Shown here piece after piece: positions 1 through 6,386 of a stretch of DNA of 6,386 bases; positions within the stretch are counted from its first letter, which is position 1; every line of letters starts with the position of its first letter. The notes below the pieces were generated by a model. It was not told the origin of the DNA. It made no database searches and was given only the letters and a program-made list of their open reading frames with translations. The translations under genes were made by a program, and so were the position numbers. Source of the DNA: Escherichia coli (GTDB taxonomy: Bacteria; Pseudomonadota; Gammaproteobacteria; Enterobacterales; Enterobacteriaceae); the NCBI RefSeq assembly GCF_003334305.1, contig NZ_QOWS01000049.1; one strand, given 5' to 3'.

Positions 1-62
1 AATCGGTGGAGCTGCATGACAAAGTCATCGGGCATTATCTGAACATAAAACACTATCAATAA
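1..62 (+). CDS. insB: IS1 transposase InsB, C-terminal fragment (5' part lies outside the window)
   Basis: The frame starting at nt 3 reads SVELHDKVIGHYLNIKHYQ followed by TAA at 60-62, which matches the InsB C-terminus as I recall it. Confidence 0.7.
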   Translation, partial: SVELHDKVIGHYLNIKHYQ

Positions 63-77
63 GTTGGAGTCATTACC
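1..77 (+). mobile_element. IS1 insertion sequence, right end only (element continues upstream of the window)
   Basis: Nt 1-77 match, from my memory of IS1, the last ~77 bp of the element in canonical orientation (AATCGGTGGAGCTGCATGACAAAGTCATCGGGCATTATCTGAACATAAAACACTATCAATAAGTTGGAGTCATTACC), ending with the right terminal inverted repeat at 55-77. Not verified by search. Confidence 0.85.
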
Positions 78-2258: not shown

Positions 2259-2284
2259 CTGGACATTCAGGTAAAAAAGTCCAA
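2259..2284. repeat. Dyad-symmetric motif copy 3 (CTGGACATTCAGGTAAAAAAGTCCAA), fused to the terminator stem
   Basis: TGGAC (2260-2264) / GTCCA (2279-2283). The right half-site is also the 5' arm of the terminator hairpin at 2278-2304. Confidence 0.55.
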
Positions 2285-2358
2285 CTGGTGAGGTTGGGCT
2301 TTTTGGCTTTCCGGTTCTGTTGGTGGCTATGACCGGAGAAAATTGCTCTACACCTAAC
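2273..2358 (-). ncRNA. Candidate small RNA, orphan paralog of the antisense RNA at 4727..4814
   Basis: Homologous to 4727-4814 along its length: the same terminator architecture, the same internal hairpin (TCCGGT ... ACCGGA), and a conserved -10 (TAAAAT on the minus strand, plus-strand 2365-2370). The predicted 5' seed is different (GUAGAGCAAUUUUCUCC versus GUAGAGUGACUUCCUCC). No adjacent toxin gene, and no target found in the window. Confidence 0.4.
2278..2304. terminator. Bidirectional rho-independent terminator (A-tract / 8-bp stem / 7-nt loop / T-tract)
   Basis: AGTCCAAC (2278-2285) pairs with GTTGGGCT (2293-2300), with one G-U pair. The loop is TGGTGAG. A5 lies upstream and T5 downstream, so it reads as stem plus U-tract on both strands. 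It serves the 1772..2221 ORF on the plus strand and the sRNA candidate on the minus strand. Confidence 0.6.
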
Positions 2359-2393
2359 GCTTACATTTTATTTACAGCGTTTGATATCTTCCT

Positions 2394-2429
2394 CGCCTTT
2401 AACGCCTTTAACGCCTTTAACGCCTTTAA
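2394..2429. repeat. Perfect tandem repeat, 4 copies of the 9-bp unit CGCCTTTAA
   Basis: Direct reading: the unit CGCCTTTAA occurs at 2394, 2403, 2412 and 2421, followed by G6. It occupies the -35/upstream position of the sRNA candidate promoter at 2365-2370. Confidence 0.9.
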
Positions 2430-2798
2430 GGGGGGAAGATAGAGCAACTCACCGATGATGAATAAAGTGGACGAAGAGACGATAACTACACTCCCATCCA
2501 GGGGGGGGCTTTTTTTGTGGTACTGTAGTGTGGGAGTAAGTTCGGGTCTCATATTGAATGAGGCGATTGCGAGCTGCCTTTCATCGAAAACTAATGTCCA
2601 TTGTCATTGTATTGTCTGACTCTATCTCGTAACAAGTCTTTGACACAAAGTTTTATATTTTTATCAAAGTGGACATGAGGGGAATTAAATTTGTGATCTT
2701 TTTCAAATAATGTGTTCTTGATAGTAGATTCTGGTTAGTGATATCTATTAACAATATATTAAATTTCTTTTGTATTATCGCTGATAAAACTACTGTAT

Positions 2799-2807
2799 TG
2801 GTATACT
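2799..2807 (+). promoter_or_regulatory. Candidate extended -10 promoter (TGgTATACT) for the 500-aa ORF
   Basis: TG at 2799-2800 and TATACT at 2802-2807, inside a very AT-rich ~280-bp upstream region. A second candidate is TTGACA at 2640-2645. The ribosome-binding site AGGAG is at 2825-2829, 8 nt before the ATG at 2838. Confidence 0.4.
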
Positions 2808-2837
2808 ATATATTATTGAGTAACAGGAGATATCACT

Positions 2838-4340
2838 ATGAAGAAATTTTATCAATTTAGGGATGAACAGCGAAAGGAGCTTGAACAACATGATTTTTAT
2901 AGTTTGATTTCTTCAGATTGTATAGCGTTGAAAGACAAACTATTATTTGCTCCTGTTATGGCTCATTTCATAATGAACTTCAGAGACATGAATAAATGGG
3001 TTATCAGGTTTGATAACAATGATAATGAATATAAATCTGTTATAAACGGTGGAACAATCGAGGATGAAACACATTCAAGATTGTTTCTGGAAGACTGGAG
3101 GAAACTATATATAGATGACAAACTTAACTGGAAAGCAAGTGATGTTATATACTGGTTGTTTATTAGTCGAGAAATGGAGTGTTTCCGAAAATTTGGTATT
3201 GATTTTATGAGACTTTGTGTAGATGATGGAGGAGACCCAATACTTCGATATTCTCACTCCGAGTCAGGAGAAACTTGCGGTAATATATTCTTTTCAAGAA
3301 TTAGTCCTATTGCTGATCAAGTTGCCAATCATTTGGGAATATCACTCCGTTATTTTGGAACATTTCACCTTAATCTTGAAAATGGACATGTATGGAAGTC
3401 AGAAGGTGTTTTTGAAAATATAGAGTTGTCACCAGATTCTTATAAGAAAATGGCTACTCTATCAAAGAGAATGTTTGATATATTTGAAGGAATTCATGAC
3501 TCTTTTTATAATTACCTGTCCAGTTATGTTCTTAATGGAAGTCATCCGTCATTTTTTGAATCATTACCTGTAGGGAAAAATGTTGCACCTATATACCCTG
3601 AATTTGTGATAGAAAACAAAAGCCATAACGATGGTAGACATATTGAACATATAAACAATTACCTGGAAAAAATATCGAGTCATGAGTTCTTTAAATGGCT
3701 GGTTAACACCTCAATAGACCCTCAATTGAAATTGAAAAGTTTCATACCTCTTTGGATTGTTGATATTATGGGGTATAGAGATATTAATAAATATGTTTTT
3801 ACATATGAACAGCCTGAATCAGAAAGTGAAAAGATTATAAATGATTATGCATTACACTTGTCAGAGCATAGCCGTTTATTTTATCATGACTGGAAGTCAC
3901 TTCAACTTGATGATATGTTACGTTGGAGTGCCAGTGATACTCTTGAGTTTATTTTTCTTAATTCAGATATGGATATGCATAGAGAAAATATAGTTAAGTT
4001 TTCTTTGTTCGGATTAAAACACAGAGATCCTGTTATCAGGTTCTGGTTTATGATGATACTGGAGTTAAGTGGAAAAGAATTTTTCTCTCATGTTGGAGAT
4101 ATAGCTTTACAGGTGGAAAGTAAATATAATATTTATCTCCCATATTTATGTGGACGCCATGCAACAGAAAATGAGCATGAAGCATATAATAATATGTATG
4201 AGCATTTTATGGTAAAGGAACTTAGCCCTGAACAAAGTGATCTAATAATACAAATTACAGACATGGTTATGCGGTCATTATTGAATAATTTGGATATCTC
4301 ATATCGATATGTAGTAAATAATTTATTGGCAGCTCGTTAG
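2838..4340 (+). CDS. Hypothetical 500-aa protein made of two homologous ~220-aa halves; function unknown
   Basis: Long ORF with a strong AGGAG Shine-Dalgarno site, its own AT-rich promoter region and its own terminator. The two halves share ETHSRLFLEDWRKLYIDDKLNWKASD versus EHSRLFYHDWKSLQLDDMLRWSASD, FRDMNKWV versus YRDINKYV, and a later ELSP motif. No signal peptide or TM helix is apparent. Codon usage is strongly AT-biased compared with the flanking sequence. Confidence 0.8.
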   Translation: MKKFYQFRDEQRKELEQHDFYSLISSDCIALKDKLLFAPVMAHFIMNFRDMNKWVIRFDNNDNEYKSVINGGTIEDETHSRLFLEDWRKLYIDDKLNWKASDVIYWLFISREMECFRKFGIDFMRLCVDDGGDPILRYSHSESGETCGNIFFSRISPIADQVANHLGISLRYFGTFHLNLENGHVWKSEGVFENIELSPDSYKKMATLSKRMFDIFEGIHDSFYNYLSSYVLNGSHPSFFESLPVGKNVAPIYPEFVIENKSHNDGRHIEHINNYLEKISSHEFFKWLVNTSIDPQLKLKSFIPLWIVDIMGYRDINKYVFTYEQPESESEKIINDYALHLSEHSRLFYHDWKSLQLDDMLRWSASDTLEFIFLNSDMDMHRENIVKFSLFGLKHRDPVIRFWFMMILELSGKEFFSHVGDIALQVESKYNIYLPYLCGRHATENEHEAYNNMYEHFMVKELSPEQSDLIIQITDMVMRSLLNNLDISYRYVVNNLLAAR

Positions 4341-4374
4341 AAGAACAGCATTGGTATGACTCTGATGCTCCTTA

Positions 4375-4404
4375 AAATCCCACTTTTCAGAGTGGGATTT
4401 GTTT
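4375..4404 (+). terminator. Rho-independent terminator of the 500-aa ORF
   Basis: Perfect 10-bp stem AAATCCCACT (4375-4384) / AGTGGGATTT (4391-4400), loop TTTCAG, followed by GTTTAAT. It lies 35 nt after the TAG stop at 4338-4340. Confidence 0.65.
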
Positions 4405-4504
4405 AATGCCCAGAACAGGGGGAATTTCCATTCATGCCCAAAAAATATTTTGATGTCCTCTCGCCAATTCTCGCGCTCAGTCCTTCCTGAAAAACCTCAG
4501 AATT

Positions 4505-4645
4505 CACGTAGCGCATCGCCGCTACTGCATCCATCAAAAAAAATGACAGCTTTTTTAATCATCTTGTGTTACTCAACTTACTGAAAAATGTGATTTATGA
4601 AAATGCCGCCGTCGGCATCAAGCAGTTGGCCAGCGCAACCGGCTG
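4505..4645. repeat. Repeat block U, copy A (about 140-bp core; homologous to 5765-5905)
   Basis: Shared anchors, by eye about 75% identity: TTCACGTAGCG, TACTG-ATCCATCAA, AATGAC, CTACTGAAAAAT, GGC-ACAGCATC. The reading frames are not conserved between the two copies, so it is probably non-coding. Confidence 0.55.
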
Positions 4646-4726
4646 CATCGACCGCAACAAAAAAACTGAAAGAGAAAGCCCCTCAAATGAGGGAGAAAAA
4701 AAGGAAGTGCAGTCAACGAGAGGCGT

Positions 4727-4814
4727 AAAAAACCCGACTGGTGAGGTCGGGTTTTAATACGGTTCCGGTTCTGAGTTGGTGGCTCTGACCGGAGGAAGTC
4801 ACTCTACACCTAAC
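4727..4814 (-). ncRNA. Candidate antisense small RNA (type I antitoxin-like), divergent from the 31-aa peptide gene
   Basis: Minus-strand promoter: TTGCAA (4844-4849), 17-bp spacer, TAAAAT (plus-strand 4821-4826). The predicted start is near 4814. The terminator is stem CCCGAC (4733-4738) / GTCGGG (4746-4751) with loop TGGTGAG and a U6 run on the minus strand. The first 24 nt (complement of 4791-4814) pair with plus-strand 5026-5049 in the peptide mRNA leader (23 Watson-Crick pairs plus one G-U). Confidence 0.5.
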
Positions 4815-4820
4815 GTTTAC

Positions 4821-4849
4821 ATTTTATGCACTCAGCCGCAGTATTGCAA
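4821..4849 (-). promoter_or_regulatory. Candidate sigma70 promoter of the antisense RNA (-35 TTGCAA, -10 TAAAAT, 17-bp spacer)
   Basis: Read on the minus strand: TTGCAA, then TACTGCGGCTGAGTGCA, then TAAAAT. Confidence 0.45.
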
Positions 4850-4903
4850 CTAACTGTGGTTAAGGCACCACATTTAGTTGTGTATCGTGGGTTTTATATA
4901 CCT

Positions 4904-4909
4904 TATAAT
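4904..4909 (+). promoter_or_regulatory. Candidate -10 (TATAAT) for the peptide mRNA, implying a leader of about 210 nt
   Basis: Consensus TATAAT at 4904-4909 with an AT-rich upstream region; the -35 is poor. It is divergent from the antisense RNA promoter, about 55 bp away. Confidence 0.3.
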
Positions 4910-5025
4910 CATGAAGTTAGCCGTGTGGTGTGGCTTCTTCCTCTGCCCTTCCCGTTTATGCAGGTATGAACGATTTTAAAGTCCTGGCTGAACAAACAGG
5001 TGGTGCTGTGTTTAGTGCTCTGGCA

Positions 5026-5049
5026 GGAGGAAGTCACTCTGCACCTAAC
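5026..5049 (+). promoter_or_regulatory. Predicted antisense RNA target site in the peptide mRNA leader
   Basis: GGAGGAAGTCACTCTGCACCTAAC (5026-5049) differs at one position (A to G) from plus-strand 4791-4814, so it is complementary to the 5' end of the minus-strand RNA with one G-U wobble. Confidence 0.5.
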
Positions 5050-5102
5050 AATGCGAGAGAACCGTTGTGACAGGCAGTGTAAGAGCAAGCAACGGTGATT
5101 TC

Positions 5103-5119
5103 CTCCAGTTTTACTGGAG
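5103..5119 (+). promoter_or_regulatory. Hairpin sequestering the Shine-Dalgarno sequence of the peptide gene
   Basis: CTCCAG (5103-5108), loop TTTTA, CTGGAG (5114-5119). The SD GGAG (5116-5119) is inside the 3' arm. TTCCTCC at 5100-5106 could alternatively pair with GGAGGAA at 5026-5032. Confidence 0.4.
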
Positions 5120-5125
5120 AAACGG

Positions 5126-5221
5126 ATGATTAATCTGTTAATCATCGTTCTCAGGGCTGTGGTCGCCGTTGCAAACGCGCTGATTGCAATTCTGGAACTG
5201 ATTCGCCAGTTCATCGACTGA
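5126..5221 (+). CDS. 31-aa hydrophobic peptide, type I toxin-like (MINLLIIVLRAVVAVANALIAILELIRQFID)
   Basis: ATG at 5126 with GGAG 6 nt upstream. An in-frame stop lies upstream at 5096-5098, so this is the first possible start. The peptide has one predicted TM helix and a charged C-terminus. A near-identical paralog is at 6044..6139. It is not in the ORF track, which lists only the antisense frame 4909..5214. Confidence 0.6.
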   Translation: MINLLIIVLRAVVAVANALIAILELIRQFID

Positions 5222-5446
5222 TGACAGCGGAAACGTAACTAAGGACAGGAAGTGAACCGCTTCCTGCCCTTTAACATACTGTGATATTTTTCAAAAAAAC
5301 TCACCAATATTCTCCTCGGCAGAAATGACATAACTCACTGTAAAATAACAAATCATCTAAACGCCAGCTTTGTATTGAGCGCGTTGGCCAACGCCTTTAT
5401 CAGCTGCGACCGCACCAGATAATTTGAATAAGATTTCCCGCATCAC

Positions 5447-5472
5447 CTGGACATACAGGTTATTCTGTCCAT
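5447..5472. repeat. Dyad-symmetric motif copy 4 (CTGGACATACAGGTTATTCTGTCCAT)
   Basis: TGGACA (5449-5454) / TGTCCA (5466-5471), with an inner dyad ACCTG ... CAGGT. It lies in the spacer between the two peptide units. Confidence 0.6.
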
Positions 5473-5764
5473 ACCTCATTAGTTACAACATTCACGCGTT
5501 CTGTTCCTTTATCCGGTGCCCTGTTCCAGTATATGTGCCCATATCCTGGGTTATTCAGGATAACCGCTTCCTTTTCGCCCTGTCCTGTCGTTCATATCCC
5601 CCTGGACAAAAATGCATTATCGGAAAAAATGTCCAAAATTTTTTTGGTGATCGGAATTTTTGTTGTCGGACGCACCTCTTCTTCAGGTCATAATTGCTGA
5701 CACATCCCAAAAAACAGGAGCGGAGATTTAAAAATTGAGTCACTTACCCGCCAAAATTTTCCAG

Positions 5765-5905
5765 ATTTCACGTAGCGTACCGTCGATACTGTATCCATCA
5801 ACAAATGACTATTTTTTGAATGTGTCATTTCCTGTAACCTACTGAAAAATATCAGTGAATGACAATATCGGCGACAGCATCGGAGCTGATAGCCAGTTTC
5901 CTGAA
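5765..5905. repeat. Repeat block U, copy B (homologous to 4505-4645)
   Basis: Same anchors as copy A. It is preceded by a candidate -10 (CATAAT, 5689-5694) and followed by the hairpin at 5994-6032. Confidence 0.55.
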
Positions 5906-5993: not shown

Positions 5994-6032
5994 AGCCCAA
6001 CTTTATGGGGGTCAGTTCAGTGAGGTTGGGCT
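5994..6032. terminator. Hairpin homologous to the sRNA terminators (8-bp stem, enlarged 23-nt loop), directly upstream of the second peptide gene
   Basis: AGCCCAAC (5994-6001) pairs perfectly with GTTGGGCT (6025-6032). The loop ends in TCAGTGAG, compared with TGGTGAG in the other copies. On the plus strand, A4 lies upstream and no U tract follows. Confidence 0.45.
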
Positions 6033-6043
6033 AAGAGAAACGA

Positions 6044-6139
6044 ATGATTAACCTGTTAATCATCATTCTCAGGGATGTGGTCGCCGTTGCAAACGCGCGG
6101 ATTGCAGTTCTGGAACTGATTCGCCAGTTCATCGTTTGA
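6044..6139 (+). CDS. Second copy of the 31-aa peptide (MINLLIIILRDVVAVANARIAVLELIRQFIV), possibly degenerate
   Basis: ATG at 6044 with a weaker ribosome-binding site (AAGAG). It differs from copy 1 at 7 nt (V8I, A11D, L19R, I22V, D31V, one synonymous), and two of these put charged residues in the hydrophobic core. It lacks the sRNA, promoter and leader block present upstream of copy 1. Confidence 0.45.
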   Translation: MINLLIIILRDVVAVANARIAVLELIRQFIV

Positions 6140-6309: not shown

Positions 6310-6386
6310 GGTGATGCTGCCAACTTACTGATTTAGTGTATGATGGTGTTTTTGAGGTGCTCCAGTGGCTTCTGTTTCTATCAGCT
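6310..6386 (+). mobile_element. IS1 insertion sequence, left end (element continues beyond the window)
   Basis: GGTGATGCTGCCAACTTACTGATTTAGTGTATGATGGTGTTTTTGAGGTGCTCCAGTGGCTTCTGTTTCTATCAGCT matches the IS1 left inverted repeat and the insA 5' region as I recall them. It is in the same orientation as the IS1 fragment at 1-77. Confidence 0.9.
6365..6386 (+). CDS. insA: IS1 InsA, N-terminal fragment (GTG start; continues beyond the window)
   Basis: GTG GCT TCT GTT TCT ATC AGC translates to (M)ASVSIS, the InsA N-terminus as I recall it. Confidence 0.7.

Follow-up and report, generated by a model that had tools for sequence, protein, structure and literature searches.

A polymorphic 9-bp tandem repeat with neighbouring poly-G tracts in rearrangement-junction DNA of Escherichia coli ColV/IncF plasmids

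A perfect tandem array of a 9-bp unit and two runs of G lie between a small RNA gene and the gene of a 500-aa protein in the window, as we call the whole stretch of 6,386 nucleotides that was analysed. These tracts differ in length from plasmid to plasmid, they are placed at a rearrangement junction, and the array persists in plasmids from which the adjoining sRNA gene (copy B) is deleted. Copy B itself has no native -35 element and pairs poorly with the toxin leader. Judged from sequence comparisons, the array and both G runs are probably a neutral and hypermutable variable-number tandem repeat (VNTR) plus poly-G in rearrangement-junction DNA. According to this explanation, the tracts would be non-coding simple-sequence DNA between the degenerate copy B and the long leader of an AetD-like gene, and their length would change by slipped-strand mispairing during replication. 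They would have little or no regulatory consequence and would serve at most as a plasmid typing marker.

Plasmid setting and structure of the tracts

Sequence identity places the window in ColV/IncF plasmids, as a segment with IS1 at both ends. Between these IS1 ends, its sequence agrees at 100% with that of pECOS88 (the pS88 ColV plasmid), in which the segment has sitABCD on one side and sopAB on the other. The ORFs between sitA and sopA, and so within the window segment, are pS88026-031, whose levels in the pS88 transcriptome did not change significantly, be it in iron-poor medium, in serum or in urine (PMC3438092). The 611 bp around the array are present in 298 PLSDB plasmids and in 285 of 5426 complete E. 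coli genomes; the carriers are nearly all plasmids, mainly conjugative IncF. A 3.2-kb cassette (2260-5470) shows at most 1.5% divergence among IncF, IncX4, IncX1 and IncK plasmids, and the module to its left diverges by about 30% between plasmid lineages. The cassette has thus spread recently across IncF, IncX and IncK plasmids. Because its divergence is so low, conservation and covariation tests have no power to show constraint.

Two other observations concern the same DNA. An element of about 24 nt with inverted ends, TGGACAnnCAGG...GTCCA, is found in five copies (813-836, 1148-1171, 1711-1734, 2260-2283 and 5448-5471), and mosaic breakpoints between plasmid lineages coincide with these five elements, which could be recombination sites, operators or conserved terminators. 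Moreover, a minus-strand ORF of 224 aa (73-747), which extends into the IS1 end, matches the PADLOC profile Aga_Helical-REase at positions 213-332 of 378 (E = 4e-23). This ORF is probably what remains of a defence-type nuclease gene after truncation by IS1.

Table 1. Features of the 6,386-nt window that are discussed in the text, in order of position.
Feature	Position	Strand	Remarks
IS1, right end	1-77		
D4 element, 24 nt, TGGACATTCAGGTAAAAAAGTCCA	2260-2283		Left boundary of the conserved cassette 2260-5470
AgrB-family sRNA, copy B	2271-2359	minus	Rfam RF02891, 46 bits (gathering score 40); -10 TAAAAT at 2365-2370
22-bp junction DNA	2372-2393		Between the copy B -10 and the array; common to no other agrB gene
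Tandem array (CGCCTTTAA)x4	2394-2429		Polymorphic VNTR, 1-8 units among plasmids
Proximal G tract	2430-2435		G6 here, G7 in IncX lineages
Distal G8-C-T7	2501-2516		G8 2501-2508, C 2509, T7 2510-2516
ORF promoter-proximal region	2683-2837	plus	CRP-like TGTGATCTTTTTCAAA at 2692-2707
500-aa ORF, WP_000715081.1	2838-4340	plus	Tandem double heme-oxygenase-like (AetD-like) domain
AgrB-family sRNA, copy A	4725-4815	minus	Rfam RF02891, 64 bits; -10 at 4821-4826, -35 TTGCAA at 4844-4849
sRNA target region, dqlB-1 leader	5010-5049	plus	Repeat family D2; pairing counts
dqlB copy 1 (DinQ-like type I toxin)	5125-5220	plus	RefSeq annotation; PMC12365149
dqlB copy 2	6044-6139	plus	RefSeq annotation
Second IS1 copy, left end	6310-6386		

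The tracts had been described beforehand in a sequence-only reading of the window, and its coordinates are confirmed exactly by direct reading and, for the array, by TRF. TRF reports a period of 9, 4.0 copies, 100% matches and a score of 72 for the array, which contains zero mismatches, and the first G of the G8 run is spaced 71 nt from the array end. Four tandem perfect 9-mers are beyond chance in 6.4 kb. G runs of at least 6 nt give five overlapping matches in the window vs 1.0 expected from dinucleotide shuffles, of which 5 in 200 reach five. Being made of head-to-tail copies of one unit whose number varies on conserved flanks, the array matches the definition of a VNTR.

Other identities were considered for the repeat. 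A plasmid iteron or centromere-like repeat was ruled out by the 9-bp unit, the range of 1-8 copies and the absence of an adjoining rep or par gene. Such repeats measure about 17-43 bp, are conserved in number and stand beside the rep or par gene whose product binds them; sopA is located about 5 kb from the array, on the far side of an IS1. Other copies of the unit in the window were considered as a target duplication of a mobile segment: the only one, CGCCTTTAT at 5392-5400, falls inside the GCGTTGGCCAACGC hairpin and was judged coincidental. The repeat sequence was not found in the literature searched.

Length variation and IS1 junctions among plasmids

With a query of 171 bp spanning the tracts, matches were obtained in 246 plasmids, from which an evenly spaced sample of 60 records was examined. 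In this sample, the matched spans deviate from 171 by multiples of 9 plus -1 to +3 nt. The numbers of units inferred from the sampled rows are roughly 1 (2 rows), 2 (3), 3 (11), 4 (10), 5 (11), 6 (at least 1, BLAST splitting some 6-unit alleles as seen at locus L011), 7 (4) and 8 (1), and about ten additional sampled rows are left out of these counts. Twenty-one loci were retrieved and their alleles read in sequence, by which fourteen of the sampled alleles were confirmed; the copy number read was identical to the number inferred from the span in every retrieved allele. Every array size from 1 to 8 units occurs among the retrieved loci. The proximal tract is G6 or G7, and the distal tract is GGGATG, G6, G8, G9, G10 or G11, always followed by the invariant C and T7. 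These states occur on otherwise identical flanks, in agreement with the earlier suggestion that the tracts are slippage-prone, and the invariance across strains that would have spoken against it is clearly not what is seen over about 250 plasmids.

The twelve IncF alleles illustrate the contrast between the tracts and their surroundings: over the 527 bp that surround the tracts, from the sRNA terminator to the ORF start, they differ by 0-1 substitutions, vs seven array lengths and four distal-G lengths. Some poly-G lengths may be long-read assembly errors; G11, however, recurs in three independent assemblies. Since, in addition, G10 and G11 accompany one allele of the 500-aa protein (WP_072657541.1), the length of the G run is lineage-linked and real. 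Within this lineage the array has 3, 4 or 5 units, so the G run changes more slowly than the array. One allele is common to eight related hen-derived plasmids, which indicates that the locus is stable within clones and that its mutation rate is moderate, not extreme.

The two most divergent lineages (L010 and L013) carry GGGATG at the distal tract, and the L010 array is a single unit. This suggests that the simple tract states (GGGATG and the single unit) are ancestral. A single copy of CGCCTTTAA would have been amplified to up to eight, and GGGATG would have become G6 by two substitutions before expanding to G8-G11. The substitution density of the cassette is highest at 2430-2520, with 4-5 differences in 87-89 aligned sites vs about 1% in the ORF, and gives no sign of constraint.

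The same alleles bear on the idea that the repeat is coding, the array being part of a minus-strand small protein of 63 aa (ATG at 2552) with a (KAL)n repeat and a C8 run acting as frameshift switch. The 9-bp unit keeps the frame, and an ORF of this kind has been called by PGAP in part of the records (WP_012300439.1). It stays open and in frame (63-72 aa) in the G8 as well as the G11 allele, a coincidence expected 1 time in 3 by chance, which also counts somewhat against neutrality. However, the frame is broken or the start codon lost in the G9, G10, G6 and GGGATG alleles, the IncX lineages read the array in another frame (KGV), and no Shine-Dalgarno sequence precedes the ATG. PGAP gene calls over the array are inconsistent between records, in strand as well as in extent, and none of the six frames compared over 15 alleles is conserved. 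A coding function is therefore extremely unlikely.

IS1 is inserted within the array in five plasmids (L012 and L018-L021), with identical orientation, variant end and right junction (...ACC/TAACGCCTTTAAGGGGGG). The target duplication is 9 bp long, TAACGCCTT, and corresponds to one repeat unit in a shifted register. The right remainder of these split arrays, 1.3 units, is invariant; the left part comprises 2, 5, 5, 6 or 7 units, one of the two 5-unit parts containing a point-mutated unit. The most economical reading is that the five split arrays go back to one insertion, followed by further slippage only where at least two units were left.

Other rearrangements have taken place close by. A Salmonella Kentucky ColV plasmid (L029) has an independent IS1 junction at 2377/2378, where copy B is deleted and five units and G8 are kept. 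The IncK locus L013 lies beside an IS91-family element; its homology to the window starts only at 2432, a position within the proximal G run, and both the array and copy B are missing. Junctions are seen to cluster at the array: within 55 bp there are three, two of IS1 that are independent of each other and one associated with IS91. Further along the cassette, an IS1 at 4440 (L011 and L012) removes copy A and both dqlB genes, and the array is retained.

These junctions raise the question of how the first duplication of the unit came about. It may have been a target-site duplication left by IS1 or another element that duplicates 9 bp, with slippage setting in afterwards; such an origin is compatible with a neutral VNTR. 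The unit has the length of the 9-bp duplication made by IS1, the IS1 in the array is flanked by one shifted unit, a second and independent IS1 junction is only 16 bp away, and IS1 copies bound the whole segment. Furthermore, the step from one to two units has no flanking microhomology to start from (CT/CGCCTTTAA/GG). On the other hand, a footprint intermediate was not found among the retrieved alleles, IS1, when it excises precisely, takes one copy of the duplication with it and leaves no net gain, and many 9-bp VNTRs arise without transposons. We consider this origin improbable.

The flanking sRNA and AetD-like genes

Both sRNA genes proposed in the sequence-only reading are genuine and belong to the AgrB family (Table 1), their RF02891 matches covering 4725-4813 (copy A) and 2271-2357 (copy B) on the minus strand. 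Copy B matches the RF02891 model over its full length (1-84), with both stem-loops present, and the terminator stem has undergone paired changes from copy A to copy B (CCGAC/GTCGG to CCAAC/GTTGG), suggesting that copy B was an RNA gene after the duplication. Over 31 positions of the dqlB-1 leader, copy A forms 28 Watson-Crick and 2 G-U pairs with a longest helix of 24, vs 23 Watson-Crick and 4 G-U pairs with a longest helix of 13 for copy B. Full-length RNA duplex energies were discarded in favour of these explicit pairing counts because they were inflated by long non-specific pairing. From these comparisons, copy A appears to be the cognate antitoxin and copy B a degenerate, agrA-like paralog.

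The plasmid dqlB-agrB pair is an experimentally validated addiction module of the type I toxin-antitoxin class (PMC12365149, PMC12317039). In this module, agrB loses its antitoxin activity when the pairing region contains a 4-nt mismatch (PMC12365149). In the chromosomal dinQ-agrAB system, agrB pairs at 30 of 31 positions and agrA at 25 of 31, and the latter was described as "partly degenerated ... appears to be non-functional"; the full-length dinQ transcript was lowered about 3-fold by agrA (PMC3567139). As in these systems, both sRNAs of the window match Rfam AgrB. Copy A and dqlB-1 show the validated architecture, and copy B parallels the degenerate agrA paralog. In contrast to them, copy B is 2.4 kb from copy A with the 500-aa gene in between, it is devoid of a -35 region, a VNTR replaces its native upstream DNA, and the window contains an extra dqlB copy without target repeat.

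This second copy is 93% identical to dqlB-1 over 137 nt and is preceded by a hairpin resembling an sRNA terminator (5995-6035); no sRNA target repeat was found upstream of it. A repeat of about 90 nt (families D7 and D10, 84-93% identical) is present upstream of copy A (4498-4589) and upstream of dqlB-2 (5762-5850), and it has no match in Rfam. Because chromosomal dinQ is SOS-regulated, the window was also scanned for LexA operators: two one-mismatch matches were detected vs 2.2 expected, none of them near the tracts.

The homology between copies A and B, repeat family D5, stops at 2371/4827, directly upstream of the shared -10. When both genes are aligned on this TAAAAT, the TTGCAA of copy A corresponds to AGGAAG (2388-2393, minus strand) in copy B; that copy B lacks the TTGCAA had been noticed in the sequence-only reading. 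A distant search with 2300-2402 retrieved another 587 plasmids, and in their agrB genes the match ends at about 2375. Since agrB homology ends at about 2371-2375, the -35 zone, the array and the G run are junction DNA and part of no other agrB gene. A rearrangement has deprived copy B of its native -35 and left it only the -10. The placement of the array at the -35/UP region of the sRNA promoter, also proposed in that reading, is therefore correct for the UP-element zone and beyond (-36 to -71) but not for the -35 itself.

Could the array nevertheless act on copy B as a contingency locus? The number of repeats upstream of the -35 would then set the transcription of copy B, hence the antitoxin pool and post-segregational killing by DqlB, the array working either as an UP-like, A/T-phased element or by rotating the upstream DNA around the helix. 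Several features agree with this. The array abuts a promoter with a good -10 and no -35, at which an upstream element could matter, and the tracts are truly hypervariable. Moreover, copy B scores above the Rfam gathering threshold and has paired terminator-stem changes, its seed helix with the toxin leader is 13 nt long, and the chromosomal agrA does reduce the full-length dinQ transcript about 3-fold (PMC3567139). But the whole UP-element zone is identical in all arrays of at least three units, and most of the variation (3-8 units) cannot alter promoter-proximal DNA. The unit, TTAAAGGCG, matches an UP subsite poorly when compared by eye, and copy B leaves 4 of 31 positions unpaired, as many as the 4-nt mismatch that abolishes agrB function (PMC12365149). 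The array persists where copy B is deleted, it varies where IS1 severs the DNA to its right, and it is also kept in the two plasmids (L011 and L012) in which IS1 eliminated copy A and dqlB.

On balance a contingency locus of this kind is unlikely. The related suggestion of the sequence-only reading, that repeat number could modulate sRNA transcription, finds no support: copy B has only a -10, with junction DNA upstream and poor pairing to the toxin leader, the promoter-proximal units are the same at three or more copies, and the array is kept and remains variable where IS1 splits off copy B. A broader form of the idea, a contingency switch on a virulence plasmid in which the tracts tune the promoter of the -35-less agrA-like sRNA or a longer minus-strand precursor, is distinctly improbable. 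If it held, it would set the threshold of post-segregational killing by DqlB, and plasmid populations could hedge between strong and weak addiction. To our knowledge, no type I toxin-antitoxin system has been described as being under simple-sequence control.

On the other side of the array, residues 1-231 of the 500-aa protein match the heme-oxygenase-like diiron enzyme AetD (PDB 8ji2, E = 8e-18). The N- and C-terminal halves of the 500-aa protein share 32% identity (E = 3e-25). By these matches, the protein consists of two tandem copies of a heme-oxygenase-like diiron domain. It has no match in Pfam, NCBIfam or PADLOC, and its relation to AetD was found only through PDB sequences. Homologs are present in Salmonella, Yersinia, Piscirickettsia, myxobacteria and actinomycetes. 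The gene represents an uncharacterised enzyme family on virulence plasmids, adjoining a toxin-antitoxin module.

The tracts are 320-440 bp from the ATG of this ORF. Of the upstream DNA, only 2683-2750 is also found at the Salmonella homolog (85% identity), and neither the array nor equivalent G tracts are present upstream of the 86%, 79%, 68% and 64% identical ORF homologs. As divergent homologs share only 2683-2750, the core control region lies within about 160 bp of the ATG, far from the tracts. CRP-like sites (TGTGA-N6-TCAAA) are found at 2692-2707 and 5280-5295, two matches vs 0.32 expected, and the Salmonella homolog of the 500-aa gene has the former conserved in its upstream DNA.

The G8-C-T7 element had been proposed as a weak plus-strand terminator. 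In a consensus scan, CTCCC...GGGGG with the adjoining T7 was picked up as a terminator-like hairpin in four registers; its stem has five pairs, one of them G-U. The minimum free energies of the GGGATG, G6, G8 and G9 alleles range from -5.9 to -9.0 kcal/mol, at z values of -0.64 to +0.62 vs shuffles, and in the G8 and G9 alleles the surplus G residues part the stem from the U tract. As none of the four folded alleles is better than shuffled sequence, a Rho-independent terminator was rejected. With a stem of five pairs, z values at the level of shuffles and GGGATG at this place in other lineages, the proposal of even a weak terminator is doubtful.

A wider role for the tracts in the expression of the 500-aa gene was considered as well, either through G8-C-T7 as a tunable terminator that would insulate the gene against read-through or through an effect of the tracts on a distal operator. 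Besides the hairpin in its four registers, the segment from 2432 to the ATG argues for such a role, since it accompanies the ORF in all E. coli plasmid lineages, L013 included. Against it are the unremarkable folding and the shift of the stem off the U tract in longer G runs, to which must be added that the bidirectional terminator of sRNA B (2275-2302) already stops upstream transcription and that the core promoter, about 150 bp from the ATG, is 180-440 bp from the tracts. A promoter scan around the tracts gave one minus-strand match (2635-2606) vs 2.6 expected and no sigma-70-like promoter flanking the G run, and the G8 run lies within no conserved ORF and no recognisable promoter spacer. 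Hence, a regulatory or insulating element of the 500-aa gene is very unlikely.

Relation to known repeat loci

Intergenic VNTR loci of E. coli, including plasmid-borne ones (pO157), serve for MLVA typing. The present locus resembles them in its short, perfect, non-coding units, in being polymorphic between lineages and stable within clones on identical flanks, and in its presumed slippage. It differs from them in being carried by ColV/IncF, IncX and IncK plasmids within a toxin-antitoxin cassette, and in the two polymorphic poly-G runs that flank the array.

The other comparison is with promoter contingency loci, for which nadA (TAAA repeats upstream) and porA (poly-G between -35 and -10) of Neisseria meningitidis and hif of Haemophilus (TA repeats) are examples. 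Two G runs and a VNTR within 125 bp recall the contingency loci of other bacteria, which speaks against neutrality, as do the position of the array beside a promoter and the fact that runs of G8-G11 are unusual in E. coli. With nadA, porA and hif the locus has in common a hypermutable repeat just upstream of a promoter and a poly-G of 8-11 nt. Unlike in these genes, the G run here is in no recognisable promoter spacer or ORF, and the array is beyond the -35 of the crippled promoter of a degenerate sRNA. As far as we know, simple-sequence repeats rarely act as switches in E. coli. Control of the agrA-like RNA by the tracts is unlikely on present evidence; if it did exist, a type I toxin-antitoxin module would for the first time be seen under a simple-sequence switch.

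Together, these results describe a real and previously unreported plasmid VNTR with poly-G tracts, a feature of an ordinary kind that is probably neutral. Its alleles split by IS1 would illustrate that slippage needs at least two units. The locus is a possible plasmid typing marker, as it is short and easily typed and has eight array states and at least six G-tract states. Such a marker could sharpen plasmid epidemiology where point substitutions are almost absent, its cassette being common to the ColV/IncF virulence plasmids of APEC/ExPEC and to IncX and IncK plasmids.
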